Shown one piece after another: positions 7,129-48,179 of a stretch of 53,649 nucleotides of DNA (position 1 is its first letter; the number at the start of each line of letters is the position of its first letter). The notes beneath the pieces are model-generated. The model ran no database searches, was not told the origin of the DNA, and saw only the letters and a list, made by a program, of their open reading frames with translations. The translations under genes and the position numbers were made by a program. The stretch spans positions 1 through 53,649 of the forward strand of contig PEUB01000123.1 in the NCBI GenBank assembly GCA_002780895.1. Direction: 5' to 3'. Source of the DNA: Nitrospirae bacterium CG02_land_8_20_14_3_00_41_53. Its GTDB lineage: Bacteria; Nitrospirota; Thermodesulfovibrionia; Thermodesulfovibrionales; SM23-35.

Positions 7129-7133
7129 GACTA

Positions 7134-9963: not shown

Positions 9964-10049
9964 TGGTGCCGAAGGCGGGATTTGAACCCGCATGGGTTAC
10001 CCCACACGCCCCTCAAACGTGCGTGTCTACCAGGTTCCACCACTTCGGC
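9964..10049 (-). tRNA. tRNA-Leu (anticodon GAG), class II with long variable arm, CCA encoded
   Basis: The reverse complement folds by hand. Acceptor GCCGAAG/CTTCGGC, anticodon stem CACGT/GCGTG with loop TTGAGGG, long variable arm, T arm GCGGG-TTCAAAT-CCCGC, 3' ACCA. Confidence 0.85.
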
Positions 10050-10086
10050 ATTGGCAGTTTATGCTACTACAAAAATCTGAGGTTTA

Positions 10087-10761
10087 TCAGGCAATGAGTT
10101 GTTTATTAATCTTGATTTTTATCTGTTTTTTAAGACCTTCAATATATGACTTAACTGCCTTTTCTTTTCTGTCATTAAGTATTTGCTCACTGAGCATCTT
10201 TACTAACTGGTTGTCACCAGATACCTTTTCTAAATTAGAATTGATAGCTGTCACATCAACAGACAGCTCTATTAAACGTCTCATTTTTTTGAGTGTTAGT
10301 TCCTGGCGTTTTGAACTCTCATATGCCTCTGGAGTTATCCTGTTCAGCCTCAGCCTGTTAAGGTAAACATCCTTATCGAATACACCATTTCTCAAAAAAG
10401 CTGGTTCATGTGTTATTGATTCTTGAAGTTCTTCGTCACTTATATTAATATCTGCTTCTTTAGCAGCTATAAGCAGGACCTGTTCATCTATCATTGAGTT
10501 AAGGACATTCTCTTTCAGGTTCATCTTTTTTTCCATCTCTTCATCAAACTTATCCTTATATATCTCCCTGTAAAAACGGGATACCCCTTCATACCTTCTC
10601 CAGTATTCCTCAGTTGTTATTTTGTATTTCCCAACCTCTGCTACAGTCTCAACGCCGCCTGTTTTATCTACACCGCCTACACCCCAGAATATAAAACTTA
10701 TTATTATCATAAAGAAAAGGACATAGAAATACTTTGCATGTTTTCGCATCACCTTGAGCAT
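10087..10761 (-). CDS. SurA N-terminal domain / PpiD-like periplasmic chaperone (no PPIase domain seen)
   Basis: 224 aa. N-terminal membrane anchor (YFYVLFFMIIISFIFWG) followed by a helical chaperone-like region. Confidence 0.55.
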   Translation of the reverse strand: MLKVMRKHAKYFYVLFFMIIISFIFWGVGGVDKTGGVETVAEVGKYKITTEEYWRRYEGVSRFYREIYKDKFDEEMEKKMNLKENVLNSMIDEQVLLIAAKEADINISDEELQESITHEPAFLRNGVFDKDVYLNRLRLNRITPEAYESSKRQELTLKKMRRLIELSVDVTAINSNLEKVSGDNQLVKMLSEQILNDRKEKAVKSYIEGLKKQIKIKINKQLIA

Positions 10762-12374: not shown

Positions 12375-14167
12375 TTTCTCTTAAACATCTTCTTCAGATC
12401 ATCCAGAGAAAAGAAAATCCTTGTTGGTCTGCCGTGGGGGCATTGATCGGGGTGGTCCGCTTGCTCAAGGTCGGAGATAAGGTTTGAAAGTTCTTCCTGA
12501 TTAAGGATTTTTCTGCCTCTTACCGAGCTATGGCATGCAATTCGTGCAGCAAGAGCCTCTTTAAGGGATTTATATGGAGCAATGCCTTTGATAATACATG
12601 ATGCAGCATCTGAGAGAATACCCATGATATCAGCATCCCTTAAAACATCAGGGAGGGAGCGTACAATAACAGTCTCATGTCCAAAATCATCTACTTCCAT
12701 TCCAAAATCCCTGAGTGTCAGGATGTTTTCAAGGATAATCCTATATTCCTTGTGTGACAGTTTAACCTGCTTTGGAAATAATAACTGGTGAGAATTAAGA
12801 TTAATTCCTTTTAGAAACCTTTCATAAAGAATCCTCTCATGAGAAGCGTGGTGATCTATGAGTGTAAGCCCTCCCTTACCTGAAATAGCGATAAAGGTGT
12901 CTCCGAGATAGATAAAAGGCAGATGAGGTTTATAAGCAAATTCAAGGTTTTCTGATATTACAGACCCATGATGGGCAGCCTGTGGGAAGCAAGATATACC
13001 GTAATTAACCGACTGAGTTAATGAATCAGTTACAGACATTTTTGTGAATTGTTTTACATATTCATTTCTCTCTTCTCTTACAGCTTCTCTAATGCTGGAA
13101 TTTACAAAACGATAAATAGATTCTTTATCCTCAAACCTTACTTCGCGCTTTGTAGGGTGGACGTTAAAGTCCACCTTCCCCGGGTCAATGTCGAGAAAGA
13201 GGAAAAAGACAGGATGTTTATCACGAGGGAGAATACCCTCATATGCATTATATACTGCATGAGAAAGGGATTGATCTTTTATCGGCCTCTTATTTATAAA
13301 GATGAACTGATGGGATCTGCTGTTTCTGAAGTTATCGCCTTTTGAGACAAATGCTTTCATCTTTACAACCCCTTCTTGACTCCCGATAATCCCCCCTTGT
13401 CCCCCTTTAGTAAAGGGGGGATGGGGGGATTTGAAAGAGGGGGGTAAGGGGGGATTATTAACCTCCATAAGACTATTAAGAAACTCTTCTCCATAGATCT
13501 GCATAATACGTTCTCTTGGACTTGATGACAATGGGAGATTAATGGTTTCCTGATTATCAGAAGTAAGCCTGAAGCCTATCTCCCAGTGAGAAATGGCCTC
13601 TTTTGTAACTGTATCTATAATGTGAAAAAGCTCCGTGCTGTTTGATCTAAGGAATTTTTTTCTTGCAGGGGTATTAAAAAATAAATCCCTGACCTCAACA
13701 GTCGTACCGATAAAAGGGGAATCTTTTGCCTCTTTTACTTCACCGCCATGTATTTCAACAGATACACCTACCCTCCCTCTCGTCCCCCCCTTGCTAAGGG
13801 GGGGCTGGGGGGATGAATTTTTCAGACCTGTGATGAGTTTAATTTTTGAAATAGATGCAATGGATGGAATGGCCTCACCCCTGAACCCCATTGTCTTTAT
13901 ATTAAAGAGATCATCCTCGGTGACAAGTTTGCTTGTAGCGTGCCCTTTAAATGCAAGCAGGGCATCTTCTTTATCCATGCCTGTGCCATTATCAGATACC
14001 CTGATAAGACGCTTGCCACCATAGAGAATATCGATCCTTATATTAGTACTCTCAGCATCAATTGAATTTTCAATCAGCTCCTTTACAACAGAGGCAGGTC
14101 TTTCAATAACCTCGCCTGCTGCAATCTTATTCCTTAAATCACGAGGAAGGATATTAATCTTTGGCAT
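12371..14167 (-). CDS. mutL: DNA mismatch repair protein MutL
   Basis: 598 aa. IAAGEVIERPASVVKELIENSIDA and the GHKL ATPase N-terminus, plus a MutL C-terminal dimerisation domain. Contains palindromic inserts at two loci. Confidence 0.9.
   Translation of the reverse strand: MPKINILPRDLRNKIAAGEVIERPASVVKELIENSIDAESTNIRIDILYGGKRLIRVSDNGTGMDKEDALLAFKGHATSKLVTEDDLFNIKTMGFRGEAIPSIASISKIKLITGLKNSSPQPPLSKGGTRGRVGVSVEIHGGEVKEAKDSPFIGTTVEVRDLFFNTPARKKFLRSNSTELFHIIDTVTKEAISHWEIGFRLTSDNQETINLPLSSSPRERIMQIYGEEFLNSLMEVNNPPLPPSFKSPHPPFTKGGQGGIIGSQEGVVKMKAFVSKGDNFRNSRSHQFIFINKRPIKDQSLSHAVYNAYEGILPRDKHPVFFLFLDIDPGKVDFNVHPTKREVRFEDKESIYRFVNSSIREAVREERNEYVKQFTKMSVTDSLTQSVNYGISCFPQAAHHGSVISENLEFAYKPHLPFIYLGDTFIAISGKGGLTLIDHHASHERILYERFLKGINLNSHQLLFPKQVKLSHKEYRIILENILTLRDFGMEVDDFGHETVIVRSLPDVLRDADIMGILSDAASCIIKGIAPYKSLKEALAARIACHSSVRGRKILNQEELSNLISDLEQADHPDQCPHGRPTRIFFSLDDLKKMFKRK
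13388..13456. repeat. C/G-run palindromic element plus an extra right half-copy, in frame in mutL (minus-strand gene)
   Basis: aatccccccttgtccccctttagtaaaggggggatggggggatt + tgaaagaggggggtaaggggggatt, translated as NNPPLPPSFKSPHPPFTKGGQGGII. Confidence 0.85.
13771..13814. repeat. C/G-run palindromic element (cttgctaag centre) in frame in mutL
   Basis: ccctccctctcgtcccccccttgctaaggggggctggggggat, translated as SPQPPLSKGGTRGRVG. Confidence 0.75.
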
Positions 14168-18091: not shown

Positions 18092-20614
18092 TTGGAAGAA
18101 AGATATAATGCTCAAAGAATTGAGCTAAAGTGGCAAAGGTACTGGGCTGAGAAAGGGATATATAAGACTGATTTAGATCCTTCAAAAAAGAAATTTTACT
18201 GCCTTGAGATGTTTCCTTACCCTTCGGGTGAAATCCATATGGGACATGTAAGGAACTATGCTATCGGCGATGTAATAGCGAGGTATAAGCGGATGCGCGG
18301 ATATAATGTTCTTCATCCTATGGGCTGGGATGCATTCGGGCTTCCTGCAGAGAATGCTGCGATAAAACACGCTGTACACCCCTCAGAATGGACATATAAG
18401 AATATTGATTATATGAAAAAACAGCTTAACAGAATAGGACTCAGCTATGATTGGGAAAGAGAAGTAACCACCTGCAACCCTGAATATTACAAATGGAATC
18501 AGTGGTTTTTCCTGAAGATGCTTGAAAAGGGGCTTGCCTACAGAAAATATTCTTATGTAAACTGGTGTCCTTCCTGTGCAACTGTCCTTGCCAATGAACA
18601 GGTGATTGATGAAAAATGCTGGCGCTGTGACAGTATTGTCATTCAGAAGAAGCTTGAGCAGTGGTTTTTCAAGATTACCCACTATGCAGAAGAATTGCTT
18701 CAGGGCTGTAATGAATTAATGGGATGGCCCGAAAGGGTAGTCCTGATGCAGAAAAACTGGATTGGTAAGGGTGAAGGCGTGGAGGTGTATTTTCCCATTG
18801 TAGGAATGGATGGACAATTAAAAATATTTACCACAAGGCCTGATACCTTATTTGGTGTGACCTTTATGTGCATTGCCCCCGGACATCCTATGTCAGAAAA
18901 ACTGATTAAAGATATTGATAAGCTCGAGACCATAAAAGCAAAATATGGCAGGGAAGATGAGAAGATAGGGCTTTTTACTGGATATTACGCTGTTAATCCA
19001 CTAAATGGTAATAAAGTACCTGTATATATCGCAAATTTCGTGTTGATGGAATACGGGACAGGTGCAATTATGTCTGTTCCTGCACATGACCAGAGGGATT
19101 TTGAGTTTGCAAAGAAATATGATTTGCCTGTAAAAGTAGTAATAGTGCCGGAACATGACAGTAGAGGATGCCCCCCCACCCATCCCTCCCCCTCAAGGGG
19201 GGAGGGTAAGGGAGGGGGTGAAGCTCTCGATGCCCAGCTTACCGAGGCGTATGAGGATGAAGGTATACTTGTTGATTCAGGCCAGTTTACCGGTCTGAGG
19301 AGTGATATTGCGAGGCAGCATATAATAAAATTTATAGAAGAGAAAGGGCTTGGAAAGGCTGTAGTTAATTTTAAATTAAGGGACTGGGGCATTTCACGGC
19401 AGAGATACTGGGGTACACCTATCCCCATAATTTATTGCGATAGATGCGGTATCGTCCCTGTCCCGGAAAAAGACCTTCCTGTTATATTGCCAGAGGATGT
19501 GAAAATTACAGGTAAGGGAGGCTCACCACTCCTTGAGTCAGAAGAATTCCTCAAGGTTCAATGCCCCAAATGTGGTGATAATGCAAGAAGGGAAACGGAT
19601 ACCATGGATACCTTTGTGGATTCATCATGGTATTTTATACGTTACTGTTTTAGAAAAGGGGATATTGACTTAAACTCCGAACTCCGGACTCCTGACTCTG
19701 AAGTTGATTACTGGATGCCTATTGATCAATATATAGGCGGGGTTGAGCATGCAGTGCTTCATCTCCTTTATTCAAGGTTCTTTACAAAGGTTATTCGTGA
19801 TCTCGGACTTCTAAATGCAGGTGAACCTTTCCAGAATCTTCTTACACAGGGCATGGTCATAAAAGACGGTGCAAAGATGTCTAAGTCAAAGGGCAATGTT
19901 GTTGACCCTAATTATCTGATAGAGGAATACGGTGCTGATACGTCAAGGTTGTTTTCTCTCTTTGCTGCTCCTCCCGAGAAAGACCTCGAGTGGTCTGACA
20001 AGGGTGTTGAAGGCGTATACAGATTCTTGAACAGGATATGGGGGATTGTATACAAAAACAAATTCAAAATTCAAAATTCAAAATTCAAAATTAATAAAGC
20101 CTTTAGCCTTCAGTCTTCAGCCTTAGGCCTCTATCGGAAAACTCATCAGACTATTAAAAGAGTTACAACAGATATTGAACGTCAATACCACTTCAATACT
20201 GCAATAGCTGGATTGATGGAGCTTATGAATGAAATAACCTCATTTGATCCCAAATCCAATGAAGACTGGGCAATATTTAAATTTGCAATAGAGAAATTGT
20301 TAATCCTCCTCTGTCCATTTTCTCCACATATTGCAGAAGAACTATGGGAGGGGATAGGGAATGAGCCGAGTATATTAGAGCAAAAATGGCCTGATTGGGA
20401 TGAGGAGGCTGCAAAAGAAGAGAAGATAGAGCTTGTTATACAAATTAATGGTAAACTAAGATCAAAGATTATGATATCCCCAGGCGTTCCTGATGATGAG
20501 ATAAAGAAGATGGCACTTAACGACCAAAAAATCAAAGAGATTGTTGGCGCTAAGGTAATCAAAAAGGTTATCGTGGTAAGGGGTAAATTAGTTAATATAG
20601 TTATTGGAGAATAA
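18092..20614 (+). CDS. leuS: Leucine--tRNA ligase
   Basis: HMGHVRNY (HIGH) and KMSKSKGN signatures. I start at TTG 18092 ([15 protein letters not shown]), 8 nt after AGGAGG. The track ORF starts 13 codons upstream. Confidence 0.9.
19171..19218. repeat. C/G-run palindromic element, CCCTCCC/GGGAGGG variant, in frame in leuS
   Basis: cccccccacccatccctccccctcaaggggggagggtaagggaggggg, translated as [18 protein letters not shown]. Confidence 0.7.
19673..19700 (+). repeat. Heptanucleotide array aactccg/gactcct, 4 units
   Basis: aactccg aactccg gactcct gactctg inside leuS ([10 protein letters not shown]). Confidence 0.6.
20059..20092 (+). repeat. Heptanucleotide array caaaatt, 5 units
   Basis: caaatt caaaatt caaaatt caaaatt caaaatt inside leuS ([11 protein letters not shown]). 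Confidence 0.85.
20101..20130 (+). repeat. Heptanucleotide array cttcagc type, 4 units
   Basis: ctttagc cttcagt cttcagc cttaggc immediately after the caaaatt array in leuS ([10 protein letters not shown]). Confidence 0.65.
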
Positions 20615-20620
20615 ATGAAA

Positions 20621-20641
20621 GCAAAGAGCAAAGAGCAAAGA
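20621..20641 (+). repeat. Heptanucleotide array gcaaaga, 3 units (intergenic)
   Basis: gcaaaga x3, starting 7 nt after the leuS stop. Confidence 0.8.
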
Positions 20642-20750
20642 AAAATACGGTTAAGGCTATGGTTACGATGCTCGTATCGGTGACGTGAAAAAGTCGAATG
20701 ACGTGGCCGTAAGACGAAACGGGCTTCGTTACCCTGACCGTTTGACATGT

Positions 20751-20792
20751 TCTATGCTCTATGCTCTATGCTTTATACTATGTGCTATATGC
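20751..20792 (+). repeat. Heptanucleotide array tctatgc type, 6 units
   Basis: tctatgc x3, then tttatac tatgtgc tatatgc. Encodes the hydrophobic core of the LptE signal peptide. Its reverse-complement unit gcataga is one mismatch from gcaaaga at 20621. Confidence 0.8.
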
Positions 20793-21257
20793 TTGGCCGG
20801 TTGTGGTTATACAATCCATGGCAGGGCGGCCTTGCCTTTTGATTCAATACAGATAGCAAAGATCGAAAATGTGACTCTCGAACCAAAACTCCAGGACAGG
20901 CTTTATAAAGCCCTTACAGAGGAGTTTTTGAAGCAAGGGATTGCTGTTTATCCTGACGCAGGTTATAAACTCACTGGCACGGTTTATCAGTTTGAATTAC
21001 GTGTACTTTCTGAAAAGGCAGACATAGCAGCAGAATATGAGGTAATTATTAAAGGAGATTTTAGGCTGGTCGAACCTTCAGGAAATATAAAAGAGTTCAA
21101 AAACATAGGCTCTCCATTCATTGTATTTTTTCAAAGCTCTGGCATGCTGGAAGACGTGCTTGCAACTAAAGAACTTGCGTCAGAAAAGGCTATTAAAGAC
21201 ATGGCTATGGAGATAGTCGCTATACTTATTTACCCCGTTAGAAAAGGGGATTTTTAA
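20754..21257 (+). CDS. lptE: LPS-assembly lipoprotein LptE
   Basis: Lipobox LAGC followed by GYTIHGR, and conserved leuS-lptE-holA order. The start is uncertain (ATG 20754 chosen; the track ORF starts at 20685). Confidence 0.65.
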   Translation: MLYALCFILCAICLAGCGYTIHGRAALPFDSIQIAKIENVTLEPKLQDRLYKALTEEFLKQGIAVYPDAGYKLTGTVYQFELRVLSEKADIAAEYEVIIKGDFRLVEPSGNIKEFKNIGSPFIVFFQSSGMLEDVLATKELASEKAIKDMAMEIVAILIYPVRKGDF

Positions 21258-34897: not shown

Positions 34898-36480
34898 GAT
34901 TTAGAGAACTTCTTCATGGTTGCGAGTACATTAATCTCCCCTCACCCCCCTTTAATTCCCCCCTTAGTAAGGGGGGATATAGAGGGGTTAAAGGAGGGCA
35001 GGGGTGGTGGGACCTAGATATCTCAGGCGTAGCTTATGATTCCCGGAAGGTAAAAGAAGGTTACCTGTTTGTGGCAATTACAGGCGAGAGGTATGACGGA
35101 CACGATTTTATCAAAGATGCAATTAAAAGAGGTGCAGTTGCGATAGTTGGGGAGAAAGATTCTCCGATTCCTTTGTATATCCGTGTCAAAGACAGCAGAA
35201 AGGCACTTGCCTGTATAGCTAATAATTATTATGGAATGCCATCAGAGGCTCTCACACTGATAGGTATAACCGGTACAAATGGAAAGACAACAACAACTTA
35301 TATCCTAAAGTCTATTCTCGAGTCATGGGGAAAAGAGGTTGGCCTGATCGGCACAATTCAATACATGATAAAAGACAGGGTCTATCCTGCACTGCATACA
35401 ACACCTGAATCCCTTGAATTTCAAGGGCTATTAAAGGATATGCTTTTATCAGGATGCACATATGTTATCTCAGAGGTCTCTTCTCATGCACTTGCGCTGT
35501 ACCGAGTGGATAGGGCTATTTTTAATGTTGCATTGTTTACAAATTTTACAAGAGACCATCTGGACTTTCATAAAACTATGGAGGATTATTTCAGGGTAAA
35601 GAAGAGATTATTTATAGAGCTTCTTGATAAGGATGGTATCGCTATAATAAATCTTGATGATCCATATGGAAAGAGACTTATCTCGTCACTTATAGCTTTT
35701 AACCCGTCACAGGGTATATTGACATATGGGATAGAGAGCGGAGCAGATATCATGGCAGGTGATATTGATAACTCATCCGGGGGATTGAATTTCAAGATAT
35801 CATTCCGCGGCAGGAGTTATGATATCTCATCTCAGCTAATAGGCCTGCCGAATGTATATAATATAATGTCTGCAGTTGCTGTATCGATCTCGCTGGAGGT
35901 TCCATGGCAGGTAATCCTGGAAGGCTTAGTAAAGACAGGTAATATTACAGGCAGGTTCGAAAAGGTTGAAATTGGTCAGGAGTTTCTATGCATTATTGAT
36001 TATGCCCATACCGAAGATGCGCTTGAAAGGCTGATATCCACTGCAAGAGAATTTATCTTAACCCCCCATCCCCCCCTTACTAAGGGGGGGCATAGGGGGG
36101 GTCGCGTTATCACAGTCTTCGGTTGCGGGGGAGACAGAGACCGTGGCAAAAGGCCGGCGATGGGCGCAGTAGCAACAAGGCTTAGTGATTTTGTGATTGT
36201 AACCTCTGACAACCCGAGATCTGAAGAACCAACCGATATAATTAAAGATATCGAAAGCGGAGCAGTAAGGAAAAACTATCTCATAGAGCCTGACAGGGGA
36301 GAGGCTATCAGGAAAGCGGTTGGTATGGCAGGTGATGGTGATGTTATTCTTATTGCAGGCAAAGGGCATGAGGATTACCAGGACATTAAAGGTGTCAGGT
36401 ATAGATTTAATGACAGGGATGTTATTGAAGAGGCAATAAAATACAGGATGCAAGATACAAGATGCGGGATGCAAGATTGA
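34894..36480 (+). CDS. murE: UDP-N-acetylmuramoyl-L-alanyl-D-glutamate--2,6-diaminopimelate ligase
   Basis: GITGTNGKTTTTY, FGCGGDRDRGKRP and DNPRSE motifs. Two palindromic inserts and a heptamer-encoded C-terminus. Confidence 0.9.
   Translation: MRFRELLHGCEYINLPSPPFNSPLSKGGYRGVKGGQGWWDLDISGVAYDSRKVKEGYLFVAITGERYDGHDFIKDAIKRGAVAIVGEKDSPIPLYIRVKDSRKALACIANNYYGMPSEALTLIGITGTNGKTTTTYILKSILESWGKEVGLIGTIQYMIKDRVYPALHTTPESLEFQGLLKDMLLSGCTYVISEVSSHALALYRVDRAIFNVALFTNFTRDHLDFHKTMEDYFRVKKRLFIELLDKDGIAIINLDDPYGKRLISSLIAFNPSQGILTYGIESGADIMAGDIDNSSGGLNFKISFRGRSYDISSQLIGLPNVYNIMSAVAVSISLEVPWQVILEGLVKTGNITGRFEKVEIGQEFLCIIDYAHTEDALERLISTAREFILTPHPPLTKGGHRGGRVITVFGCGGDRDRGKRPAMGAVATRLSDFVIVTSDNPRSEEPTDIIKDIESGAVRKNYLIEPDRGEAIRKAVGMAGDGDVILIAGKGHEDYQDIKGVRYRFNDRDVIEEAIKYRMQDTRCGMQD
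34933..35010. repeat. Composite (apparently nested) C/G-run palindromic element in frame in murE
   Basis: aatctcccctcacccccctttaa[ttccccccttagtaaggggggatatagagggg]ttaaaggagggcaggggtggtgg, translated as NLPSPPFNSPLSKGGYRGVKGGQGWW. Confidence 0.7.
36059..36102. repeat. C/G-run palindromic element in frame in murE
   Basis: taaccccccatcccccccttactaagggggggcatagggggggt, translated as LTPHPPLTKGGHRGG, just before FGCGGDRD. Confidence 0.8.
36440..36477 (+). repeat. Heptanucleotide array gatgcaa type, about 5 units
   Basis: aatacag gatgcaa gatacaa gatgcgg gatgcaa gat. Encodes the MurE C-terminus (RMQDTRCGMQD) up to the stop. Confidence 0.7.
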
Positions 36481-36490
36481 AAAAAGATAT

Positions 36491-36518
36491 CAGGTATCAT
36501 GCATCATGAATCGTGCAT
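36491..36518 (+). repeat. Heptanucleotide array catgcat type, 4 units
   Basis: caggtat catgcat catgaat cgtgcat. Contains the candidate murF start ATG(s). Confidence 0.6.
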
Positions 36519-37891: not shown

Positions 37892-38974
37892 ATGTTATAT
37901 AGCCTCTTATACAGCCTGCATGACTGGTTTTCGCCCTTGAATGTGTTCAGGTATATTACGTTTCGAACCTCTCTTGCAGTGCTTACAGCGATGATTTTCG
38001 CACTGATATTGGGTCCATGGATAATAAGCAGATTGAAGGGATTAAGTATGACTCAGCAGATAAGAGATGACGGCCCCAGGACCCATATGGGCAAGGCCGG
38101 CACTCCAACAATGGGCGGGCTTCTTATTATCCTCTGCATACTGCTCGCGGTTTTTATGTGGGGCGACCTTAAGAATTTGTATGTCTGGGTCATGATCGTT
38201 TCACTTGTGGGTTTTGGATGTATCGGCCTTTTTGATGACTATTTGAAGATTATAATGAAGAATCATAAAGGCCTCAGGGCATACCAAAAGTTTGGGAGCC
38301 AGGTGATACTTGCTCTTCTAATCGGCATTTTTCTTTACATGAATCCGAAGGACCCATATGCAGACGTGTTGAGTATTCCATTTTTTAAGAAATGGCTCTT
38401 TGATTTTGGATGGCTTTATATACCATTCTCAGTGATTGTGATAGTGGGCTCATCAAATGCAGTTAACCTTACAGACGGCATAGATGGGCTTGCAATAGGA
38501 CTTGTGGCTGTTGCTGTCCTGGCCAGCGGCGTACTTGTTTATATCTCAGGGCATAAAGGTCTTGCCCAGTACCTCCAGGTCCTCTATCTTTCCGGCACTG
38601 GCGAGCTGACTGTTTTCTGTGGCGCTATGTTTGGGGCCTCGCTCGGGTTCCTATGGTATAACTCTTATCCTGCCGATGTTTTTATGGGTGACGTAGGTTC
38701 ACTTGGACTCGGGGGCTCGCTTGGGACCCTCGCTGTAATAACAAAACATGAGATCGTTCTTGCAATTGTAGGCGGCATCTTTGTTATAGAGACGATTTCT
38801 GTCATGCTGCAGGTAGCATCCTTTAAGCTTACAGGTAAAAGGGTGTTTAAGATGGCACCTATTCATCACCACTTTGAATTAAAAGGGTGGCCTGAACCAA
38901 AGGTGATTATAAGATTCTGGATAATTGGCATAATGCTTGCTCTATTGAGCCTGGCAACATTAAAAGTGAGGTGA
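37892..38974 (+). CDS. mraY: Phospho-N-acetylmuramoyl-pentapeptide-transferase
   Basis: 360 aa polytopic. NAVNLTDGIDGLA, MGDVGSLGLGG and PIHHHFE motifs. Confidence 0.95.
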   Translation: MLYSLLYSLHDWFSPLNVFRYITFRTSLAVLTAMIFALILGPWIISRLKGLSMTQQIRDDGPRTHMGKAGTPTMGGLLIILCILLAVFMWGDLKNLYVWVMIVSLVGFGCIGLFDDYLKIIMKNHKGLRAYQKFGSQVILALLIGIFLYMNPKDPYADVLSIPFFKKWLFDFGWLYIPFSVIVIVGSSNAVNLTDGIDGLAIGLVAVAVLASGVLVYISGHKGLAQYLQVLYLSGTGELTVFCGAMFGASLGFLWYNSYPADVFMGDVGSLGLGGSLGTLAVITKHEIVLAIVGGIFVIETISVMLQVASFKLTGKRVFKMAPIHHHFELKGWPEPKVIIRFWIIGIMLALLSLATLKVR

Positions 38975-38976
38975 CA

Positions 38977-40161
38977 ATGAGGAATTCCAAATTTCAAATT
39001 TCAAATTTCAAAATTAATACAAGGATTCTTTTATGTCTTTTGGTTTTTTCACTTTTCACTTTTCACTTTTCACTTTCAACTTCTCTCGCTGATGAGATTC
39101 ATTCCAAAGCTGCAGTTGTAATGGGCGCCTCAACGGGAAAGATTCTTTATGCAAAAAACCCGAGTCTCAGACTTCCTCCAGCAAGCACAACAAAGTTAAT
39201 GACAGCAATAGTAGCTATAGAAAAAGCAGACCCTTCGCATATTGTAACGGTAAGCAGAAATGCCTCTCATGTTTCTCCTCATAAGGCAGGTTTCAGAGAA
39301 GGGGATAAGGTTACTGTTAAGACTCTTCTTTATGCTGCTTTAGTGGGATCTGCAAATGATGCGGCTGTTGCCCTCGCAGAAGCAGTGGCGGGATCTGAGG
39401 AGAGGTTTGTTTATCTAATGAACAGGAAGGCGATTGCTATGGGGTTAAAGGATACTAAATTCATAAACCCCCATGGGCTTCCTGGCCCTGGCCAGTATAT
39501 CACTGCTTATGATTTATCAAAAATAATGAGTTATGCGCTTAGATATCCCAAACTGAAAGAGATTATCGGAACCCGTGTGGCAGAGGTTTCGACCGAAAAT
39601 GGGAATGCGATATTTCTTAAAAACACGAACAGGCTTTTATGGTCTGACGAAGATCTTGTTGGAGGAAAGACAGGATATACACGTAAGGCAAGGCATTGTT
39701 TTGTATGTGCTGCTGAACGTGAAAAGGATAAGGTTATAGTTGCGCTCCTCGGTAGCCCGAGCAGGGATGAACTCTGGAGAGAGGCGGAGGTACTGGTACA
39801 AAAAGGATTCCGGGCGATAGCGAACAATGAGGAACCAGTCATCTATTTTGCGAAGGCAGACTATGATAAACTTTATATAAAAAAGGCATCCTATAAGAAA
39901 AGTTCAAAATTCAAAATTCAAAATTCAAAATTAAAGACTGATAAAAGGATAGCAAAAGAGACAGTAAAACATAAAAAGGCAAAGATGATTACAAAGAAGA
40001 AGGGTAAGGCAAAACTATTTGCAAAGAAAACAATGAAGTATAAAAAGGCAAAGATGATTGCAAAGAAAAAATGGAAGACAAAGACTTTTGCAAAAAGCAA
40101 AAACAATAAGGGAAAGAATTACAGGATTGCAGAGAAAGTTGAAGATAGAATTAAAGGATAA
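38977..40161 (+). CDS. Serine-type D-Ala-D-Ala carboxypeptidase (peptidase S11, PBP5/6-like) with lysine-rich C-terminal tail
   Basis: Signal peptide, then ASTTK (SxxK), SANDA (SxN) and KTGYT (KTG). ATG 38977 lies 6 nt after GAGG (GTG 38971 is also possible). The last 90 or so residues are K-rich and repeat-derived. Confidence 0.8.
   Translation: MRNSKFQISNFKINTRILLCLLVFSLFTFHFSLSTSLADEIHSKAAVVMGASTGKILYAKNPSLRLPPASTTKLMTAIVAIEKADPSHIVTVSRNASHVSPHKAGFREGDKVTVKTLLYAALVGSANDAAVALAEAVAGSEERFVYLMNRKAIAMGLKDTKFINPHGLPGPGQYITAYDLSKIMSYALRYPKLKEIIGTRVAEVSTENGNAIFLKNTNRLLWSDEDLVGGKTGYTRKARHCFVCAAEREKDKVIVALLGSPSRDELWREAEVLVQKGFRAIANNEEPVIYFAKADYDKLYIKKASYKKSSKFKIQNSKLKTDKRIAKETVKHKKAKMITKKKGKAKLFAKKTMKYKKAKMIAKKKWKTKTFAKSKNNKGKNYRIAEKVEDRIKG
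38987..39015 (+). repeat. Heptanucleotide array tcaaatt, 4 units
   Basis: ccaaatt tcaaatt tcaaatt tcaaaatt. Encodes NSKFQISNFKI at the carboxypeptidase N-terminus. Confidence 0.8.
39049..39076 (+). repeat. Heptanucleotide array tcacttt, 4 units (complement of aaaagtg family)
   Basis: tcacttt x4. Encodes the signal-peptide core FSLFTFHFSL. Confidence 0.85.
39904..39932 (+). repeat. Heptanucleotide array tcaaaat, 4 units
   Basis: tcaaaat x4. Encodes [11 protein letters not shown], the same peptide type as in LeuS. Confidence 0.85.
39971..40108 (+). repeat. Tandem direct duplication, 69-nt period (2 copies)
   Basis: ataaaaaggcaaagatgatt[a/g]caaagaa... recurs at 39971 and 40040. Encodes KHKKAKMITKKKGKAKLFAKKT / KYKKAKMIAKKKWKTKTFAKSK. 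Confidence 0.75.
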
Positions 40162-41782
40162 AAACGTAACAGTTGTGGGCCTTGCCAGGAGCGGCATAGG
40201 CGCGGCAAATCTGCTCACTGAACTCGGAGCAGACGTGACGGTAACAGATATAAAGAAAGAGGATGAACTTAAGGATTTTATACCGAAACTTGGACCTTCA
40301 GTCAAACTTGTCCTTGGAACACATCACGAGGATATATTCTTATCATCTGATATGTTGGTCATTAGTCCTGGTGTTCCGCTTACAATCACAGCTATTTCAA
40401 AGGCAAAAGCAAAAGGAATACCTATAATCGGTGAGCTCGAACTCGCATATCAGATAGCTACTTATGGGTCAGATAATCCTCCCATTCCGCCAATAATCCC
40501 CCCTCACCCCCCTTTAGAAAAGGGGGGAAGGGGGGATTTGATAAAGGGATGCATAGGGGGGGTTCTTGCTGTTACAGGCACAAATGGTAAGTCAACAACA
40601 ACAGCCTTACTTGACTTCATGATGAAAAGAGGTGGTTTCGAAACAATTCTCGGAGGGAATATAGGGAATGCACTGACAGAGGAAATACTTAAAATAGTCA
40701 AAAGTCAGAAGTCAGAAGTCAGACCCCCCACCTGCCCCCCCTTGCTAAGGGGGGGATTTGAGGGGGGGTGTTCTTTGAACTCCGGTCTAAACTCGTCACT
40801 TGATTTTATTGTTGCTGAGGTATCAAGCTTTCAACTCGAGTCAATAAAGGACTTCAGGCCAAAGGTGGCTTCGATACTCAATATTACACCCGACCACCTC
40901 GACAGGTACCACTCAATCAAAGAATACAGCGATGCAAAGGCAAGGATATTTGAAAATCAAAAAGAGGACGATTTTCTGGTCATTAATTGGGATGACCCTG
41001 AGACAATGAAAGTTAAAAGTGAAAAGTTAAAAGTGAAAAGTGAAAAACCAAAAATCTTTTACTTCAGTCGTAGAAAAGAGGTCAAGGGGATTTACTTTAA
41101 AAATGGTATGGTTTATTGCAATCTTCCTCCAATGACGGGGACAGTCCTAATCCCCCCTCACCCCCCCTTTGTTAAAGGGGGGATGGGGGGATTATTGGCC
41201 GGTAAATCTGGGACAGTCCCCTCAGTCCCCCTAATAAGGGCTGATGAGATAAAGATAAAAGGTGTCCATAACATGGAGAATGCCATGGCTGCTTCAGCCA
41301 TGGCTCTCCTTGCAGACTGCCCGATAAAGGCAGTTATAGATTCCCTGAGGGAATTTTCTGGTCTTGAGCACAGGCTTGAATTTGTCAGAGAGCTAAATGG
41401 TGTCAGGTATTTTAACGATTCAAAGGGGACAAATGTCGGCGCAGTCATCAAATCGCTTGAAGGCTTTAAGGGGCCGATTATCCTGATTGCAGGAGGCAGG
41501 GATAAGGCAGGAGATTTTTCTCTATTGAGGCATTTAGTAAGAGAAAGGGTAAAGGCTATTGTATTGGTAGGTGAGGCAAGTGAAAAAATAAAAGGGGCAC
41601 TCGGAGACCTCGCAGAGACAGTTATGGCTAAGGATTTGAGAGAGGCTGTAAACATATCATGTAGTATGGCAGTAAAAGACGATGTTGTTTTGCTTTCACC
41701 TGCATGTGCCAGTTTTGACATGTTTGCTAATTTTGAGGACAGAGGCAGACAGTTTAAAAAGATAGTGATGGAGATGGAATAA
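40139..41782 (+). CDS. murD: UDP-N-acetylmuramoylalanine--D-glutamate ligase
   Basis: VVGLARSG, VTGTNGKSTT, NDSKGTN and SPACASFD motifs. Start set at TTG 40139 (MKIELKDKNVTVVGLARSG). The track ORF begins at ATG 40058, inside the upstream gene's tail. Carries 3 palindromic and 2 heptamer inserts. Confidence 0.9.
   Translation: MKIELKDKNVTVVGLARSGIGAANLLTELGADVTVTDIKKEDELKDFIPKLGPSVKLVLGTHHEDIFLSSDMLVISPGVPLTITAISKAKAKGIPIIGELELAYQIATYGSDNPPIPPIIPPHPPLEKGGRGDLIKGCIGGVLAVTGTNGKSTTTALLDFMMKRGGFETILGGNIGNALTEEILKIVKSQKSEVRPPTCPPLLRGGFEGGCSLNSGLNSSLDFIVAEVSSFQLESIKDFRPKVASILNITPDHLDRYHSIKEYSDAKARIFENQKEDDFLVINWDDPETMKVKSEKLKVKSEKPKIFYFSRRKEVKGIYFKNGMVYCNLPPMTGTVLIPPHPPFVKGGMGGLLAGKSGTVPSVPLIRADEIKIKGVHNMENAMAASAMALLADCPIKAVIDSLREFSGLEHRLEFVRELNGVRYFNDSKGTNVGAVIKSLEGFKGPIILIAGGRDKAGDFSLLRHLVRERVKAIVLVGEASEKIKGALGDLAETVMAKDLREAVNISCSMAVKDDVVLLSPACASFDMFANFEDRGRQFKKIVMEME
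40475..40562. repeat. C/G-run palindromic element with extra partial arms, in frame in murD
   Basis: Core aatccccctcacccccctttagaaaaggggggaaggggggattt, flanked by aatcctcccattccgcc and ataaagggatgcataggggggg. Translated as DNPPIPPIIPPHPPLEKGGRGDLIKGCIGG, directly before the P-loop. Confidence 0.8.
40697..40723 (+). repeat. Heptanucleotide array gtcagaa, 4 units
   Basis: gtcaaaa gtcagaa gtcagaa gtcaga (KSQKSEVR), abutting the palindromic element at 40724. Confidence 0.85.
40724..40770. repeat. C/G-run palindromic element (cttgctaag centre) in frame in murD
   Basis: ccccccacctgccccccccttgctaagggggggatttgagggggggtg, translated as PPTCPPLLRGGFEGG. Confidence 0.8.
41008..41049 (+). repeat. Heptanucleotide array aaaagtg/aaaagtt, 6 units
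   Basis: gaaagtt aaaagtg aaaagtt aaaagtg aaaagtg aaaaacc (KVKSEKLKVKSEKPK) in murD. Confidence 0.85.
41148..41235. repeat. C/G-run palindromic element plus a downstream half-arm, in frame in murD, bracketed by a 10-nt direct repeat
   Basis: taatcccccctcaccccccctttgttaaaggggggatggggggatta (IPPHPPFVKGGMGGL). gggacagtcc occurs at 41138-41147 and 41210-41219. The half-arm tcccctcagtccccctaat follows. Confidence 0.8.
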
Positions 41783-42975
41783 TGGGTAAATATGACAGGT
41801 GGCTGCTCCTTGTTGCAATTCTATTAATAGGTTTTGGCGCACTCATGATATACAGCACCACATCTGTTATTACTCCTGTACTTGCAAAGAGAGGGGTTAC
41901 CGAATTTTATTATTTCAAGAGACACGTATTTACAATCCTCATAGGATTCAGCTTTATGTTCCTTGCCTATAGACTGAAAACTTCCACTATAAAGAAGATG
42001 GCTATCCCACTCCTCATTTTTTCTTTTGTGCTGTTGATACTTGTTTTTTTGCCCAATATTGGAGTCTCTGCAGGAGGTGCAAGGAGATGGATAAAACTCT
42101 GGCCTTCAACCTTCCAGCCATCAGAGCTTGTAAAGCTTTCCATGGTAATATTCCTTGCGAGATATATCTCAATGCCGGGATATAGAACAGATAGTTTTAT
42201 ATCCTTTATAAAACCTATCTTCATAGTGATAATATTCCAGATAGCTATTCTTAAACAACCTGACTTCGGGGCAGCTATGAGTCTTGCATTCCTCACATTC
42301 GCAATGCTCTTTCTTTCCGGTATAAGGCTCAGATACATTGCATCACTTTTAGTGTTTGTCATGCCGGTAATATTTAAGCTTATTACAGAGCCGTATCGCC
42401 TCAAAAGGCTAACATCATTTCTTGACCCATGGAAAGATGCTCAGGGCAGCGGCTTCCAGCTTGTGCAGTCGTTTATAGCACTCGGCAGTGGAGGCTTAAC
42501 AGGGGTAGGTCTCGGATGTTCCAAACAGAAATTGTCTTATCTTCCTGAATCCCATACGGATTTTATCTTTTCTATTATTGGTGAGGAGTTTGGCTTTATA
42601 GGCGTGTTAGTTGTGATAACACTTTTTTTGCTTTTGTTCATTAAGGGTATATCTATTGCAAACAGGGCAAAAGACGGGTTTGTATATTACCTGGCAATAG
42701 GACTTTCACTGATGATCTCTCTCCAGGCGCTTATCAACTTTGCAGTTGCTACAGGCTTGGTGCCTACAAAGGGATTACCCTTACCATTTGTCAGTTACGG
42801 AGGGTCAGCTCTCCTTGTGAATTTGGCTGCTATAGGGATACTCCTTAACATATCAAGAGGTGAACATAATCCCCCCTCGCCCCCCTTTAGTAAAGGGGGG
42901 ATGGGGGGATTATCAGATGAAATGCATGTAAGGAGAAGGGCCAGAAGGAATATGGGAATTCATATTTCACAATGA
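41782..42975 (+). CDS. ftsW: Peptidoglycan glycosyltransferase FtsW (SEDS family)
   Basis: 397 aa polytopic. QPSELVK, GSGFQLVQSFIALGSGGLTGVGLG, PESHTDFIFS and PFVSYGGS motifs. Palindromic insert in the C-terminal tail. Confidence 0.9.
   Translation: MGKYDRWLLLVAILLIGFGALMIYSTTSVITPVLAKRGVTEFYYFKRHVFTILIGFSFMFLAYRLKTSTIKKMAIPLLIFSFVLLILVFLPNIGVSAGGARRWIKLWPSTFQPSELVKLSMVIFLARYISMPGYRTDSFISFIKPIFIVIIFQIAILKQPDFGAAMSLAFLTFAMLFLSGIRLRYIASLLVFVMPVIFKLITEPYRLKRLTSFLDPWKDAQGSGFQLVQSFIALGSGGLTGVGLGCSKQKLSYLPESHTDFIFSIIGEEFGFIGVLVVITLFLLLFIKGISIANRAKDGFVYYLAIGLSLMISLQALINFAVATGLVPTKGLPLPFVSYGGSALLVNLAAIGILLNISRGEHNPPSPPFSKGGMGGLSDEMHVRRRARRNMGIHISQ
42866..42913. repeat. C/G-run palindromic element in frame in the ftsW tail
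   Basis: ataatcccccctcgcccccctttagtaaaggggggatggggggattat, translated as HNPPSPPFSKGGMGGLS. Confidence 0.85.
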
Positions 42976-44101: not shown

Positions 44102-45493
44102 ATGTTTGAAAGATACAGGGTAGTACATTTTGTCGGGATAGGCGGTATAGGGATGTCAGGTATTGCAGAGGTGCTTTACAACCTTAACTACAAGGTGACA
44201 GGGTCTGATTTAAAAGATTCGGAGGCAACGGTAAGATTGAGGAAGTTAGGCATAAAGGTCTATATAGGTCATAAAGCAGAAAATATAGACGATGCCCATG
44301 TATTGGTCGTATCCTCAGCGGTTTCAGGAGATAACATAGAGGTAGCTGAGGCAAAAAGAAGGGCTATACCTGTAATACCACGTGCTGAGATGCTTGCAGA
44401 GCTGGCAAGACTGAAATACGGGATACTCGTTGCAGGGGCACATGGCAAGACAACAACGACATCTTTAGTATCGACTATACTTGCCCATGGCAGTCTTGAT
44501 CCCACTGTTGTTATAGGCGGAAGGCTAAAGGCAATAGGCAGTAACGCAAGACTTGGTCAGGGAGAATTCCTTGTGGCAGAGGCTGATGAAAGTGACGGTT
44601 CGTTTCTTAAGCTTTCCCCAACGATTGCCGTTGTCACAAACATTGACAGGGAGCATATGGATTTTTTCAAGACAATGGATTCATTGAAAAAGGCATTTCT
44701 TTCCTTTATAAATAAGGTTCCATTTTATGGCGTATCAATAATTTGTATTGAGAACGAGCACCTGCGTGAACTTTTGCCATCTATTCACAGAAGATACATC
44801 ACATATGGGCTTACCAATGAAGCAGAACTTTATGCAGAAAATATTAGAAAAGGTTTTATGTCGGTAAGCTTTGATGTAATCCATAAGGGCAAAAATTTTG
44901 GGAGTTTCGACCTTCCTGCGCCTGGGATACATAATGTCCTTAACAGCTTGGCTGCTATCGGCGTAGCATTAATTTTAAAACTAAATGTATCAATAATTAG
45001 AGATGCGCTGAAAGGGTTTAGTGGTATACAGAGAAGGTTTGAGTTTAAAGGTGAGGTGAACGGAATAAAGGTATTCGATGATTATGCCCATCATCCCTCA
45101 GAGATAAAGGCAACACTGAAGGCAGCAAAGGAAGGGCTCATTATTAGTCAGAAGTCAGGAAGATTATTTGTCATATTCCAGCCTCATAGATATACAAGGA
45201 CAAGGGATCTAATGGATGAGTTTTCATCTTCGTTTAATGATGCAGATTCACTCATACTTTTGGATATTTATTCTGCCGGAGAAAAACCAATGAAAGGCGT
45301 AAACTCAGCAACCTTGCTTGATAGGATTAAAAAAACAGGGCATAGCAGAGTTTTATATGCTGAAGATAGGGAAGATGCGATAAGGCATTTAATCTCTAAT
45401 ATGACAAGGGGTGATATCCTTCTTACTCTCGGGGCAGGCAATGTATGGAAGATAGGCGATGAGATACTAAATAAGCTAAAAGAGAAAAGTTAA
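44102..45493 (+). CDS. murC: UDP-N-acetylmuramate--L-alanine ligase
   Basis: HFVGIGGIGMSGIAEVL, GAHGKTTTTS, DDYAHHPSE and FQPHRYTRT motifs. Confidence 0.9.
   Translation: MFERYRVVHFVGIGGIGMSGIAEVLYNLNYKVTGSDLKDSEATVRLRKLGIKVYIGHKAENIDDAHVLVVSSAVSGDNIEVAEAKRRAIPVIPRAEMLAELARLKYGILVAGAHGKTTTTSLVSTILAHGSLDPTVVIGGRLKAIGSNARLGQGEFLVAEADESDGSFLKLSPTIAVVTNIDREHMDFFKTMDSLKKAFLSFINKVPFYGVSIICIENEHLRELLPSIHRRYITYGLTNEAELYAENIRKGFMSVSFDVIHKGKNFGSFDLPAPGIHNVLNSLAAIGVALILKLNVSIIRDALKGFSGIQRRFEFKGEVNGIKVFDDYAHHPSEIKATLKAAKEGLIISQKSGRLFVIFQPHRYTRTRDLMDEFSSSFNDADSLILLDIYSAGEKPMKGVNSATLLDRIKKTGHSRVLYAEDREDAIRHLISNMTRGDILLTLGAGNVWKIGDEILNKLKEKS
45147..45163 (+). repeat. Short gtcagaa heptamer run, about 2 units
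   Basis: gtcagaa gtcagga aga in murC (SQKSGR). Same unit as 40697. Confidence 0.4.
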
Positions 45494-45519
45494 AAGTGGA
45501 AACTCAAAATTTAAAAGAT
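45478..45519 (+). repeat. Heptanucleotide array aaaagtg type, 6 degenerate units across the murC-murB junction
   Basis: aaaagag aaaagtt aaaagtg gaaactc aaaattt aaaagat. Contains the murC TAA and the murB GTG. Confidence 0.65.
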
Positions 45520-46431: not shown

Positions 46432-47380
46432 ACGTATAGGTGTTTTAATGGGTGGGACTTCAGCTGAAAGAGAAATATCTCTCAGGAGTGGAACCGCAAT
46501 TTATAATGCATTGAAGGTGATAGGTTATAAGGCGTTTGCTATAGATGTCGGCCCTGATATTTGTAATGTACTGAATAGGGAAGGGATAGAGTTAGCATTT
46601 CTTGTACTTCATGGGGGATATGGAGAAAACGGTTCTATACAGGGCATGCTTGAGGTTTTAGGTATCCCTTATACAGGTTCTGGGGTGCTTGCATCTGCCC
46701 TTGCAATGGACAAAGAGGCGTCAAAGAAGATTTTTCTTTATCACAATATCCCTATACCACCATTTGTTGTAGTAACAAGTAACGAGTTATTAATCCCCCC
46801 CCTCCCCCCTTTAGTAAAGGGGGGTAAGGGGGGATTTGACTCATCACTAATTGACTTTCCGTTGCCCTGGGTCGTCAAGCCTACAGCCGAAGGTTCAAGC
46901 ATAGGAATAAGTATTGTGAGGGATAAAATGAACTTTAGACAAGCATTAGAGGCGGCCTATTCCCATGGTTCAAGGGTAATTGTTGAAAAATATATAATGG
47001 GGAAAGAGGTGCACATAGGGATACTCAATGGCAGGGTATTAGGCGGTGTTGAGGTAAGGCCATCTCTCGAGTTTTATAATTATGAGGCCAAATATACCGC
47101 AGGTCGGACAGAATATATACTTCCTCCAGAAATAAACAATAAGGCTTATGAAAGGGCAAAGGAGGCTGCTATTTCTGCTCATACTGCCCTCGGGTGTAAA
47201 GGCGCTACGAGGGTTGATCTAAGGGTTGATACAGAAGGCAATCCATATGTACTCGAGGTCAATACTATTCCGGGTATGACCGAAATGAGCTTGCTGCCAA
47301 AAATAGCAAGCCTTGCAGGGTTTGATTTTCCTGCCTTGATAGAAGAGATTATCAGAGGTGTTATTGATGAAGGCCAATAA
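46418..47380 (+). CDS. ddl: D-alanine--D-alanine ligase
   Basis: [40 protein letters not shown] and EVNTIPGMT motifs. One palindromic insert. Confidence 0.9.
46791..46837. repeat. C/G-run palindromic element in frame in ddl
   Basis: taatccccccccctcccccctttagtaaaggggggtaaggggggattt, translated as [17 protein letters not shown]. Confidence 0.85.
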
Positions 47381-48179
47381 ATTAATGAGGTCGGGTAAAA
47401 AGATAAATATCTTTGGTATATTCCGCAATGTAGCTGTTTTCATCGTCATTTTTGCAACCGCAATATGTATGTATATTTACTTGCGTCCAATAAGATCAGT
47501 ATTGCCTATTAAACACGTTGTATTTACCGGGAATAAACATCTAACAGACGATGAACTCATGGTACTTGCCGGTGTTCATGTTAATGAAAATCCCCCCTCA
47601 CCCCCCTTTACTAAAGGGGGGAAGGGGGGATTTTTAGGTGATAGTCTGATTACGATTTCAAACAAAAAGGTGAGTCAAAGGTTACTCAAATCTCCATGGA
47701 TTAGATCCGTAAGTGTAAGGAAACAATTCCTTGATACACTGTCAATGGTAATAGATGAGGCGGTGCCGTTTGCGCTTCTTGATATGAATAGCCATCTTTT
47801 TTTAATAGATGAGAAGGGTAAACTCCTTGAAGAACTTAAAGGTGATTCAATACCGTTCCTTCCAGTTATCACAGGGGATCCGTTCAGAGAAAGTGAGGGG
47901 TTTTCAGAGGCCATTAACCTTGCGAGATTGATGAATGAGAGGGGGTTTTCGCCAGGAAGAGACCACATTGATATATTTGCACGAAAGCCACATGAGCTCA
48001 CTGTAACAATCGATGGAACTGTTGTAAAAATGGGTTCTGGGATGTTCGAAGAAAAACTTAAAAGGCTGATTGAATTAGAAGACGAGATAAAAAATAGGGG
48101 CATTCCTGTTGATTATATAGATTTAAGATTTGCGGGCAAGGCGATCGTAAAACCTATAACCAACAAGGTGGTTAAGTGA
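47367..48179 (+). CDS. ftsQ: Cell division protein FtsQ
   Basis: TM helix then POTRA-like [14 protein letters not shown], in the canonical position. The start is uncertain (GTG 47358, ATG 47367 with GAGG 8 nt upstream, or ATG 47385). Confidence 0.75.
47587..47634. repeat. C/G-run palindromic element in frame in ftsQ
   Basis: aaaatcccccctcacccccctttactaaaggggggaaggggggatttt, translated as [17 protein letters not shown]. Confidence 0.85.

Follow-up and report, generated by a model that had tools for sequence, protein, structure and literature searches.

Short GC-rich hairpins and heptanucleotide arrays in three loops of MurD from an uncultured Nitrospirota bacterium

How can the gene of an essential cell-wall enzyme hold about one hundred codons of repeat DNA in an intact reading frame? 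The question is raised by murD of Nitrospirae bacterium CG02_land_8_20_14_3_00_41_53, an uncultured member of the Thermodesulfovibrionia (Nitrospirota). The stretch analysed comprises 53,649 nt of contig PEUB01000123.1 (assembly GCA_002780895.1); it is called the window below, and all positions refer to it. An earlier note on this DNA had described the murD open reading frame (ORF) as intact and about 110 residues too long, had traced the excess to repeats at four insertion sites (numbered 1 to 4 here), and had asked whether these repeats are translated and form loops.

In our judgement the inserts are likely to be translated, tolerated selfish repeats, similar to REP elements and Rickettsia palindromic elements (RPE), in permissive loops of a working enzyme. 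Three surface loops of MurD would have been colonised by a non-autonomous 44-nt GC-rich hairpin and by heptanucleotide arrays, and both repeat types would be transcribed and translated together with the gene, forming flexible Pro/Gly/Ser/Lys-rich loops that extend off the folded enzyme. Selection would purge only those copies that bring in a stop codon, break the reading frame, or hit structured parts, and therefore insertions and deletions would persist only where the loop is permissive and their length is a multiple of three. The loops would then become hypervariable through insertion, nesting, decay, partial deletion, and recombination between strains.

The murD gene and its three long loops

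The murD gene occupies its usual slot within a complete dcw cluster reaching from mraZ to ftsZ (Pfam and ORF annotation of the window), and the ORF list and the Pfam domains bear out the intact frame with its TTG start and 547 aa. MurD-like_N, Mur_ligase_M, and Mur_ligase_C (PF21799, PF08245, PF02875) each matched above cut-off, the closest sequence matches in the PDB were all MurD (E-values 8e-66 to 1e-37), and a Foldseek search with the MurD model returned MurD structures at ranks 1–33 (TM-score normalised to target 0.59–0.73). The motifs follow each other in the expected order, i.e., the P-loop GTNGKST (G147-T153), E227, H253, K267, DSKGTN (D427-N432), and SPACASFD (S520-D527); they were aligned with the motifs of E. 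coli MurD, whose roles we take to apply here (Glu and His as Mg sites, a carbamylated Lys, and the ligand motifs). Across 120 orthologous MurD sequences with 67–90% identity, these catalytic and ligand motifs were invariant or nearly so, in line with the earlier statement that removal of the repeat blocks leaves a normal MurD.

Compared with the close relatives L001–L003, dN/dS was 0.13–0.19 in the core of murD and 0.36–0.65 in the insert columns, which places the core under purifying selection. The gene is probably a functional murD, with catalysis predicted from selection and dcw context. That it might instead be a decaying pseudogene or an assembly artefact, with a working copy elsewhere, is very improbable. 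The intact ORF, the invariant catalytic residues, the low dN/dS of the core, and the canonical slot in a complete dcw operon all speak against it, as do in-frame fillers at the same loops in more than 100 orthologues from independent assemblies; the same murD alleles were found in independent JGI, NCBI, and ENA assemblies. In its favour are the limited view of 53.6 kb of the genome and the murD of relative L014 (JBGQLV010000038.1, ~10330-10380), which is frameshifted exactly inside an AAGTTCA array at site 1 that has one unit fewer than the in-frame alleles. The frameshift is either genuine, through inactivation or heterogeneity, or stems from misassembly of the repeat, and it indicates that such repeats are able to disrupt the gene or mislead assemblers.

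The excess was mapped by alignment of MurD to solved MurD structures, with S. agalactiae MurD (3lk7) as reference. It amounted to about 102 residues relative to 3lk7 and to 110 relative to E. coli MurD, close to what had been claimed. The PDB alignments broke into four pieces, and the breaks fell exactly at the blocks marked in the earlier note. Residues 108-141 of MurD face 3 residues of 3lk7 (+31, site 1), residues 183-220 face 6 residues (+32, or +32–34 overall, site 2), and residues 326-364 face 6 residues (+33, site 4). At site 3, residues ~287-305 are only about 6 longer than in 3lk7. The AAAGTGA-periodic block at 41008-41049 had been counted as the fourth insert, a classification that does not hold: the segment measures 19–21 aa in 118 of the 120 orthologues, is equally long in distant relatives whose DNA lacks the heptamer periodicity (L011, L013), and was modelled as a confident helix (residues 287-297; pLDDT of the block 79–86). 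Site 3 is thus a native helix of constant length that adds at most ~6 aa, and by alignment the real excess lies in three loops, not four.

An AlphaFold model computed from the 120-sequence alignment reached a pLDDT of 75 and a pTM of 0.68; an earlier model from 22 close relatives (pLDDT 59) had been too poor for use. Confidence collapsed only at residues 124-138 (site 1), 195-218 (site 2), and 333-359 (site 4), all with pLDDT below 50, and at two short native loops. In the model, site 1 connects helix 99-109 to strand 141-146, site 2 connects helix 179-192 to strand 223-228, and site 4 connects strand 324-328 to strand 363-367, i.e., all three are connections between secondary-structure elements. 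We infer that the insert peptides form disordered, harmless loops.

The anatomy of each site was worked out from DNA alignment with L001–L003, whose flanks are 88–98% identical (Table 1). At site 1, the block 40475-40562 is an insert as proposed, and its description has to be mended to two nested hairpin copies, with the intact inner hairpin sitting in the loop of a decayed outer one. As RNA, the inner hairpin folds at -34.5 kcal/mol, and outer and inner hairpin combined fold at -51.7 kcal/mol. Relative L003 carries only the older copy here, single and pristine (AACCCCCCCATCCCCCCCTTACTAAGGGGGGGCATAGGGGGGG), and L001 carries an AGTCAGA array instead of a hairpin. Site 2 consists of a head array, a hairpin, and a heptamer-like tail, a layout that is repeated in murE of L002; the left arm of the site-2 hairpin has lost 3 nt in frame compared with the perfect copy of L003. 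The idea that head and tail arrays extend the stem of the hairpin was dropped because of weak support (z = -1.9 for the site-2 fold).

What had been described as a palindrome plus a half-arm at site 4 is actually an intact hairpin within a 72-nt unit flanked by a 10-nt direct repeat. In empty alleles (P0040 and L004) this direct repeat is present once, a 39-nt intermediate allele was found in 19 of the 120 orthologues and in L002, and other relatives have the site filled by an ACTCGTC array (L001) or a CCCCATG array (L003). Insert and junction peptides predicted from the MurD translation include ...YGSDNPPIPPIIPPHPPLEK, GGFEGGCSLNSGLNSSLDFIVAEVSSFQLESIK, GGMGGLLAGK, and IIPPHPPLEK.

The hairpin family and the heptanucleotide arrays

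The pattern CCCCCYTT..AARGGGGG matched 16 times (12 elements) in the window and not once in 100 shuffled versions, and period-7 arrays were likewise far above shuffles (see below), confirming that the repeats are real. All 12 copies of the GC hairpin lie in frame within ORFs of housekeeping genes, with both gene strands represented, and none is intergenic. The hosts are RtcA, MutL (two copies), MurE (two), MurD (three, the decayed outer copy not counted), FtsW, Ddl, FtsQ, and LeuRS, whose copy belongs to a second, related family described below; the copies are always read as ...PPxPP(F/L)xKGGxGG.... Because the hairpin is palindromic, nearly the same Pro-Pro...Lys-Gly-Gly...Gly-Gly peptide results in either orientation. 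The earlier note had missed two points, namely that the hairpin is not peculiar to MurD and that even near-identical relatives show hypervariability at the three loops.

Metagenomes were scanned for near-perfect hairpin copies, which yielded at least 118 loci (L031–L148), and the copy statistics given below were drawn from the loci listed. The consensus of 108 distinct metagenome copies reads AAT C6 TCN C6 TTTANTAAA G6 AN G6 ATT. Its spacers are asymmetric (3 nt on the left, 2 nt on the right), and with the right spacer being 2 nt long, the core measures 44 nt; the flanks are A/T-rich and unconserved. Each copy folds as RNA at about -35 kcal/mol, in the case of MurD within an AT-rich gene. The location of 105 scorable distinct copies was compared with random positions of the same loci, among the matches listed. 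Of these copies, 64% were internal to a long ORF (71% of the random positions), 15% lay within 40 codons of an ORF end (random 19%), and 21% lay outside long ORFs (random 10%). These shares are close to random, and the hairpin is therefore almost indifferent to gene boundaries.

The host loci range from 35 to 58% GC. On one contig with 53% GC (L057), a glutamine synthetase gene (6697-8289) holds the hairpin twice, with gains of 14 aa and 34 aa, and relatives of this protein at 76–80% identity lack both inserts. Judged by one named homologue at 79% identity, the contig seems Zixibacteria-like, and the hairpin family seems to cross phyla. Hairpin copies were absent from more distant Nitrospirota loci (21 kb each) and were not found in viral contigs. 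In Rfam, no family reached the threshold for the hairpin inserts, and full-text searches of the literature returned nothing on such repeats in Nitrospirota or on the peptide motifs.

Perfect tandem arrays of at least three copies occur 7 times in the window at period 7, 0 times at periods 5, 6, and 8–12, and 0 times in shuffles; TRF reported 14 period-7 arrays with diverse unit sequences. Hosts of these arrays include the C-terminus of LeuRS, the N-terminus of LptE, and the signal-peptide region and Lys-rich C-terminal tail of an S11 carboxypeptidase, whose array at 39899 exceeds that of L001–L003 by three units (21 nt). An array within 45 nt was found for only 6 of 107 hairpin copies, compared with 7 of 1180 random positions (~9-fold enrichment); an array next to the hairpin is thus far from obligatory.

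Further small repeats accompany these two types. The second GC-rich hairpin family, to which the LeuRS copy belongs, occurs in frame in the LeuRS ORF (19163-19227, ...CCCTAACCCTCCCCCCTCGAGGGGGAGGGCAGGGGTGGGG...) and recurs in murE of L002 (~3730-3790), L004, L005, and L007. Small hairpins (TCCGCCnnnGGCGGA, CCTTCG...CGAAGG, CCCTGAA...TTCAGGG) interrupt heptamer arrays in relatives, i.e., at murD site 2 of L006, at murD site 1 of L007 and L008, and in the upstream part of the carboxypeptidase gene of L002 and L003; one of them is a clean in-frame 27-nt insertion compared with L001.

Translation, variation, and mobility of the inserts

Two of the six reading frames of the hairpin carry TAG or TAA in the loop, and a third carries TGA unless the spacer is TCG. 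The use of frames was determined for 74 intragenic near-perfect copies from metagenomes. The open frame NPPSPPFSKGGMGGF accounted for 42 copies, the open frame NPPIPPLLKGGEGGF for 17, and the open frame IPPHPPLVKGGWGD for 11; the conditional frame was used by 4 copies, all of which carry TCG. None of the 74 was found in the two stop frames, where about one third would be expected if the frame were irrelevant. A long ORF that ends at a stop within the element and is followed by another long ORF was seen for only 2 of 111 copies. Filled and empty alleles differed by 27, 33, 48, 54, or 72 nt, and decayed hairpins that are unable to fold are still kept in frame. The avoidance of stop frames, the lengths in multiples of three, and the in-frame decayed copies are therefore the signature of translation, and not of splicing or bypassing. 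That the elements form translated loops, the point raised by the earlier note, is hence very probable, based on the frame statistics, the variation among orthologues, and the loss of AlphaFold confidence.

Removal of the inserts after transcription would be the alternative, with the elements either cut out of the RNA and the ends ligated, or skipped by the ribosome as for the byp elements of Magnusiomyces or the T4 gene 60 hop. Stable GC hairpins in an AT-rich gene superficially resemble byps, and gene interiors tolerate the hairpin almost as well as intergenic DNA does. Skipped elements would, however, have no reason to avoid stop frames, to use the conditional frame only in its stop-free variant, to differ by multiples of three (including the 21-nt change in the heptamer array), or to stay in frame once they can no longer fold. 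We regard such removal as a very remote prospect.

Among the 120 orthologues, loop lengths ranged from 7 to 51 aa at site 1, from 7 to 48 aa at site 2, and from 8 to 42 aa at site 4, and the loops were found to be empty, heptamer-coded, or hairpin-coded. Naturally short alleles are those of P0110 (466 aa) and P0040 (489 aa). Relatives with 88–98% nucleotide identity differ only at the repeat sites. The loop alleles are reshuffled, as one site-1 allele is paired with different site-2 and site-4 alleles, and alleles are common to orthologues that are only 56–70% identical, yet unlike between near-identical ones. Outside murD, the ftsQ site is empty in L001 and five others and filled in the window and L003, with a clean 54-nt difference. 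Nesting within older copies was seen for 3–6 of 107 hairpin copies. Nucleotide identity along murD is mosaic, with 83% between the window and L002 at positions 424-537 of the coding sequence and 98% at positions 538-660. These patterns suggest that intragenic recombination has acted in addition to insertion, nesting, decay, and in-frame deletion.

Several observations weigh against inserts that are simply tolerated. Between the window and L004, identity is 90% in the site-2 insert and 81% in its flanks, and in a small sample the divergence of hairpin cores did not exceed that of first and second codon positions, the cores being 94% identical where third codon positions were 83% identical (in flanks that contain other variable sites). 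This is unlike freely decaying junk and hints at constraint, homogenisation, or recent recombination. The codon phase CCC CCC / GGG GGG was used by 59 of the 74 copies (80%; ~59% expected with open frames equal), which simple tolerance does not obviously explain, and 53 intragenic copies lie on the same strand as the gene versus 21 on the opposite strand. Furthermore, the case for translation is drawn from frame statistics, the hairpin stability of about -35 kcal/mol as RNA may bear on the cost of translation, and a second, insert-free murD may exist elsewhere in the genome.

Conservation and phase preference would also fit functional inserts, acting either as mRNA or DNA hairpins (pausing, stability, recombination or uptake signal) or by providing loop diversity against phages or toxins; the concentration of nine copies in the dcw cell-wall cluster and the shuffling of alleles between lineages, which resembles maintained polymorphism, point in the same direction. 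On the other side, the hairpin also occurs in unrelated proteins (RtcA, MutL, glutamine synthetase of another phylum) and in intergenic DNA at near-random frequency, loops are empty or minimal in many orthologues, copies visibly decay and lose arms, dN/dS is relaxed within the inserts, and the sample behind the conservation signal is small, with other variable sites in the flanks. A function of the inserts is thus distinctly unlikely, and translated, tolerated repeats remain our preferred explanation.

How the hairpin moves is addressed by comparison of filled and empty sites, which differed by 48, 54, 57, and 72 nt. A direct repeat of 10 nt was present at MurD site 4 only, and no consistent target-site duplication was found at ftsQ, at murE of L005, or between L092 and L048. 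The consensus of 108 copies bears no terminal tag, none of the window ORFs contains a transposase domain, and no RAYT gene was seen within the window and the fragments covered. These negatives also count against selfish repeats; mobility is therefore deduced from copy number and from filled versus empty sites. By analogy with REP/RAYT and IS200/IS605, the hairpin might move as single-stranded DNA via a trans-acting enzyme, a proposal that we make tentatively and consider somewhat less likely than not.

A bolder proposal sees in the 44-nt hairpin an active element that spreads horizontally and is built for life inside genes, and a previously undescribed engine of loop hypervariability. The near-identical core in Thermodesulfovibrionia and in the Zixibacteria-like contig, which is coding-competent either way round, would reflect such spread; insertion would prefer one codon phase, the A/T-rich loops of older copies and the heptamer arrays would serve as targets, and the arrays would be either targets or footprints of insertion and excision. 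This we consider rather unlikely.

Relation to known repeats and accompanying features

In-gene palindromic repeats are already known from Rickettsia, Opitutus, and Thauera; new are the very short element and the Nitrospirota host. RPE (Ogata et al. 2000, Science 290:347, cited after PMC3184786 and PMC3733652) are palindromes inserted in frame into housekeeping genes that stay intact, and they measure ~105–146 bp (PMC3184786, table). Like RPE, the hairpins are dispersed palindromes in frame in functional housekeeping genes, several copies per gene are possible, and orthologues with and without the insert exist. Unlike RPE, they measure 44 nt, and their host is a free-living anaerobic Nitrospirota bacterium instead of an obligate intracellular alphaproteobacterium; about two thirds of the copies are intragenic, and the loops also hold heptamer arrays and nested copies. 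Nothing points to a sequence relationship with the RPE families, as judged from size and host taxon and not from alignment.

Intragenic REPs tagged by GTAG or CGTC (Di Nocera et al. 2013) lie in genes of Opitutus terrae, Thauera, and R. conorii, many of them in replication and repair genes and tRNA synthetases, and encode 20–30 aa, or up to 82 aa in clusters (PMC3733652). The hairpin shares with REPs the short, GC-rich, imperfect palindrome, the high copy number (12 in 53.6 kb, at least 118 metagenome loci), and the asymmetry, and its 44 nt are slightly above the typical 20–40 nt. In contrast to REPs, it lacks the GTAG/CGTC tag, its consensus ending AAT...ATT, and it is mostly intragenic (64% internal to long ORFs), whereas most REPs are extragenic. 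Compared with MITEs, the whole element is one hairpin without an internal region.

The STRR repeats of cyanobacteria consist of tandem 7-nt units with many unit sequences, are scattered through the genome, and can sit inside a functional gene, namely that of the RNase P RNA of heterocystous cyanobacteria. They are mentioned in PMC2858038 and PMC4748335. The arrays described here are likewise specifically of period 7 with diverse units; they differ in phylum and unit sequence, and in that many lie inside protein-coding ORFs, where they are read as peptides with a periodicity of 7 aa and vary by three units (21 nt). GC clusters and hairpins of fungal and algal mitochondria are GC-rich palindromes in AT-rich genomes, sometimes located in coding regions, and those known as byps are skipped by the ribosome. 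Related reports are PMC2670323 and PMC2800124. The hairpin resembles these clusters in spreading as a GC-rich palindrome through AT-rich DNA and partly through coding regions. Byps, on the other hand, are organellar and skipped, whereas the frame statistics of the hairpin argue for translation; the avoidance of stop frames and the lengths in multiples of three set it apart from all bypassed or spliced inserts (byps, the gene 60 gap, introns, inteins).

At three defined positions, an essential drug-target enzyme tolerates ~100 repeat-encoded, probably disordered residues, and the natural variants with and without each insert provide a map of permissive sites for MurD, and likewise for MurE, FtsW, Ddl, FtsQ, and MutL. 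Selfish DNA inside genes would no longer be confined to reduced intracellular genomes and would also occur, as a far shorter element, in free-living anaerobes, raising the questions of how the element moves and why its cost is so small. In metagenomics, such repeats inflate protein lengths, yield spurious "hypothetical" motifs, e.g., PPxPPLxKGGxGG, lead to frameshift calls in metagenome-assembled genomes (as in L014), and break assemblies and alignments at exactly these loops.

Table 1. Positions of murD, its loops and repeats, and further repeats in the window
Feature	Position	Strand	Description
murD coding sequence	40139..41782	+	TTG start, TAA stop 41780-41782, 547 aa, intact ORF
Site 1 loop, aa 104-141	40448..40561	+	last helix of N-domain to P-loop strand, ~+31 aa
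Site 1 outer hairpin, left arm	40475..40491	+	older decayed copy; AATCCTCCCATTCCGCC
Site 1 inner hairpin	40495..40538	+	intact, 44 nt; AAT C6 TCA C6 TTTAGAAAA G6 AA G6 ATT; read as IPPHPPLEKGGRGD
Site 1 outer hairpin, right arm	40543..40562	+	decayed; AAAGGGATGCATAGGGGGGG
Site 2 loop, aa 180-220	40676..40798	+	after GGNIG helix, ~+32-34 aa
Site 2 heptamer array	40696..40723	+	AGTCAGA x4; read as SQKSEV; TRF and perfect-run test
Site 2 hairpin	40724..40768	+	C7/G7 subfamily, loop TTGCTAA; RNA fold -35.5 kcal/mol
Site 2 heptamer-like tail	40778..40799	+	AACTCCG/AACTCGT; read as NSGLNSS
Site 3 periodic stretch	41009..41047	+	AAAGTGA/AAAGTTA; KVKSEKLKVKSEK; native segment, TRF
Site 4 loop, aa 326-364	41114..41230	+	beta-hairpin, end of central domain, ~+33 aa
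Site 4 72-nt unit	41138..41219	+	bounded by 10-nt direct repeat GGGACAGTCC at 41138-41147 and 41210-41219
Site 4 hairpin	41149..41193	+	intact; read as IPPHPPFVKGGMGGL; RNA fold -34.4 kcal/mol
Hairpin in RtcA	1197-1241		in frame
First hairpin in MutL	13392-13428		in frame
Second hairpin in MutL	13784-13812		in frame
First hairpin in MurE	34945-34987		in frame
Second hairpin in MurE	36059-36101		in frame
Hairpin in FtsW	42868-42911		C-terminal tail, in frame
Hairpin in Ddl	46792-46836		in frame
Hairpin in FtsQ	47589-47632		in frame
Heptamer arrays	20060-20124, 20620-20641, 20747-20793, 36441-36518, 38983-39076, 39899-39932, 45473-45517		different units, in or at ORF ends

Two neighbouring features were noted in addition. 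The gene of the S11 D-Ala-D-Ala carboxypeptidase (38971-40161) lies between mraY and murD within the dcw cluster, an arrangement that is kept in L001–L003; its Lys-rich C-terminal tail overlaps the murD start and is 39 nt longer than in these relatives. A tRNA gene at 9967-10049 on the minus strand (Rfam, 50 bits) overlaps a mechanically called ORF at 9992-10366 that has no Pfam match and is probably not a gene.

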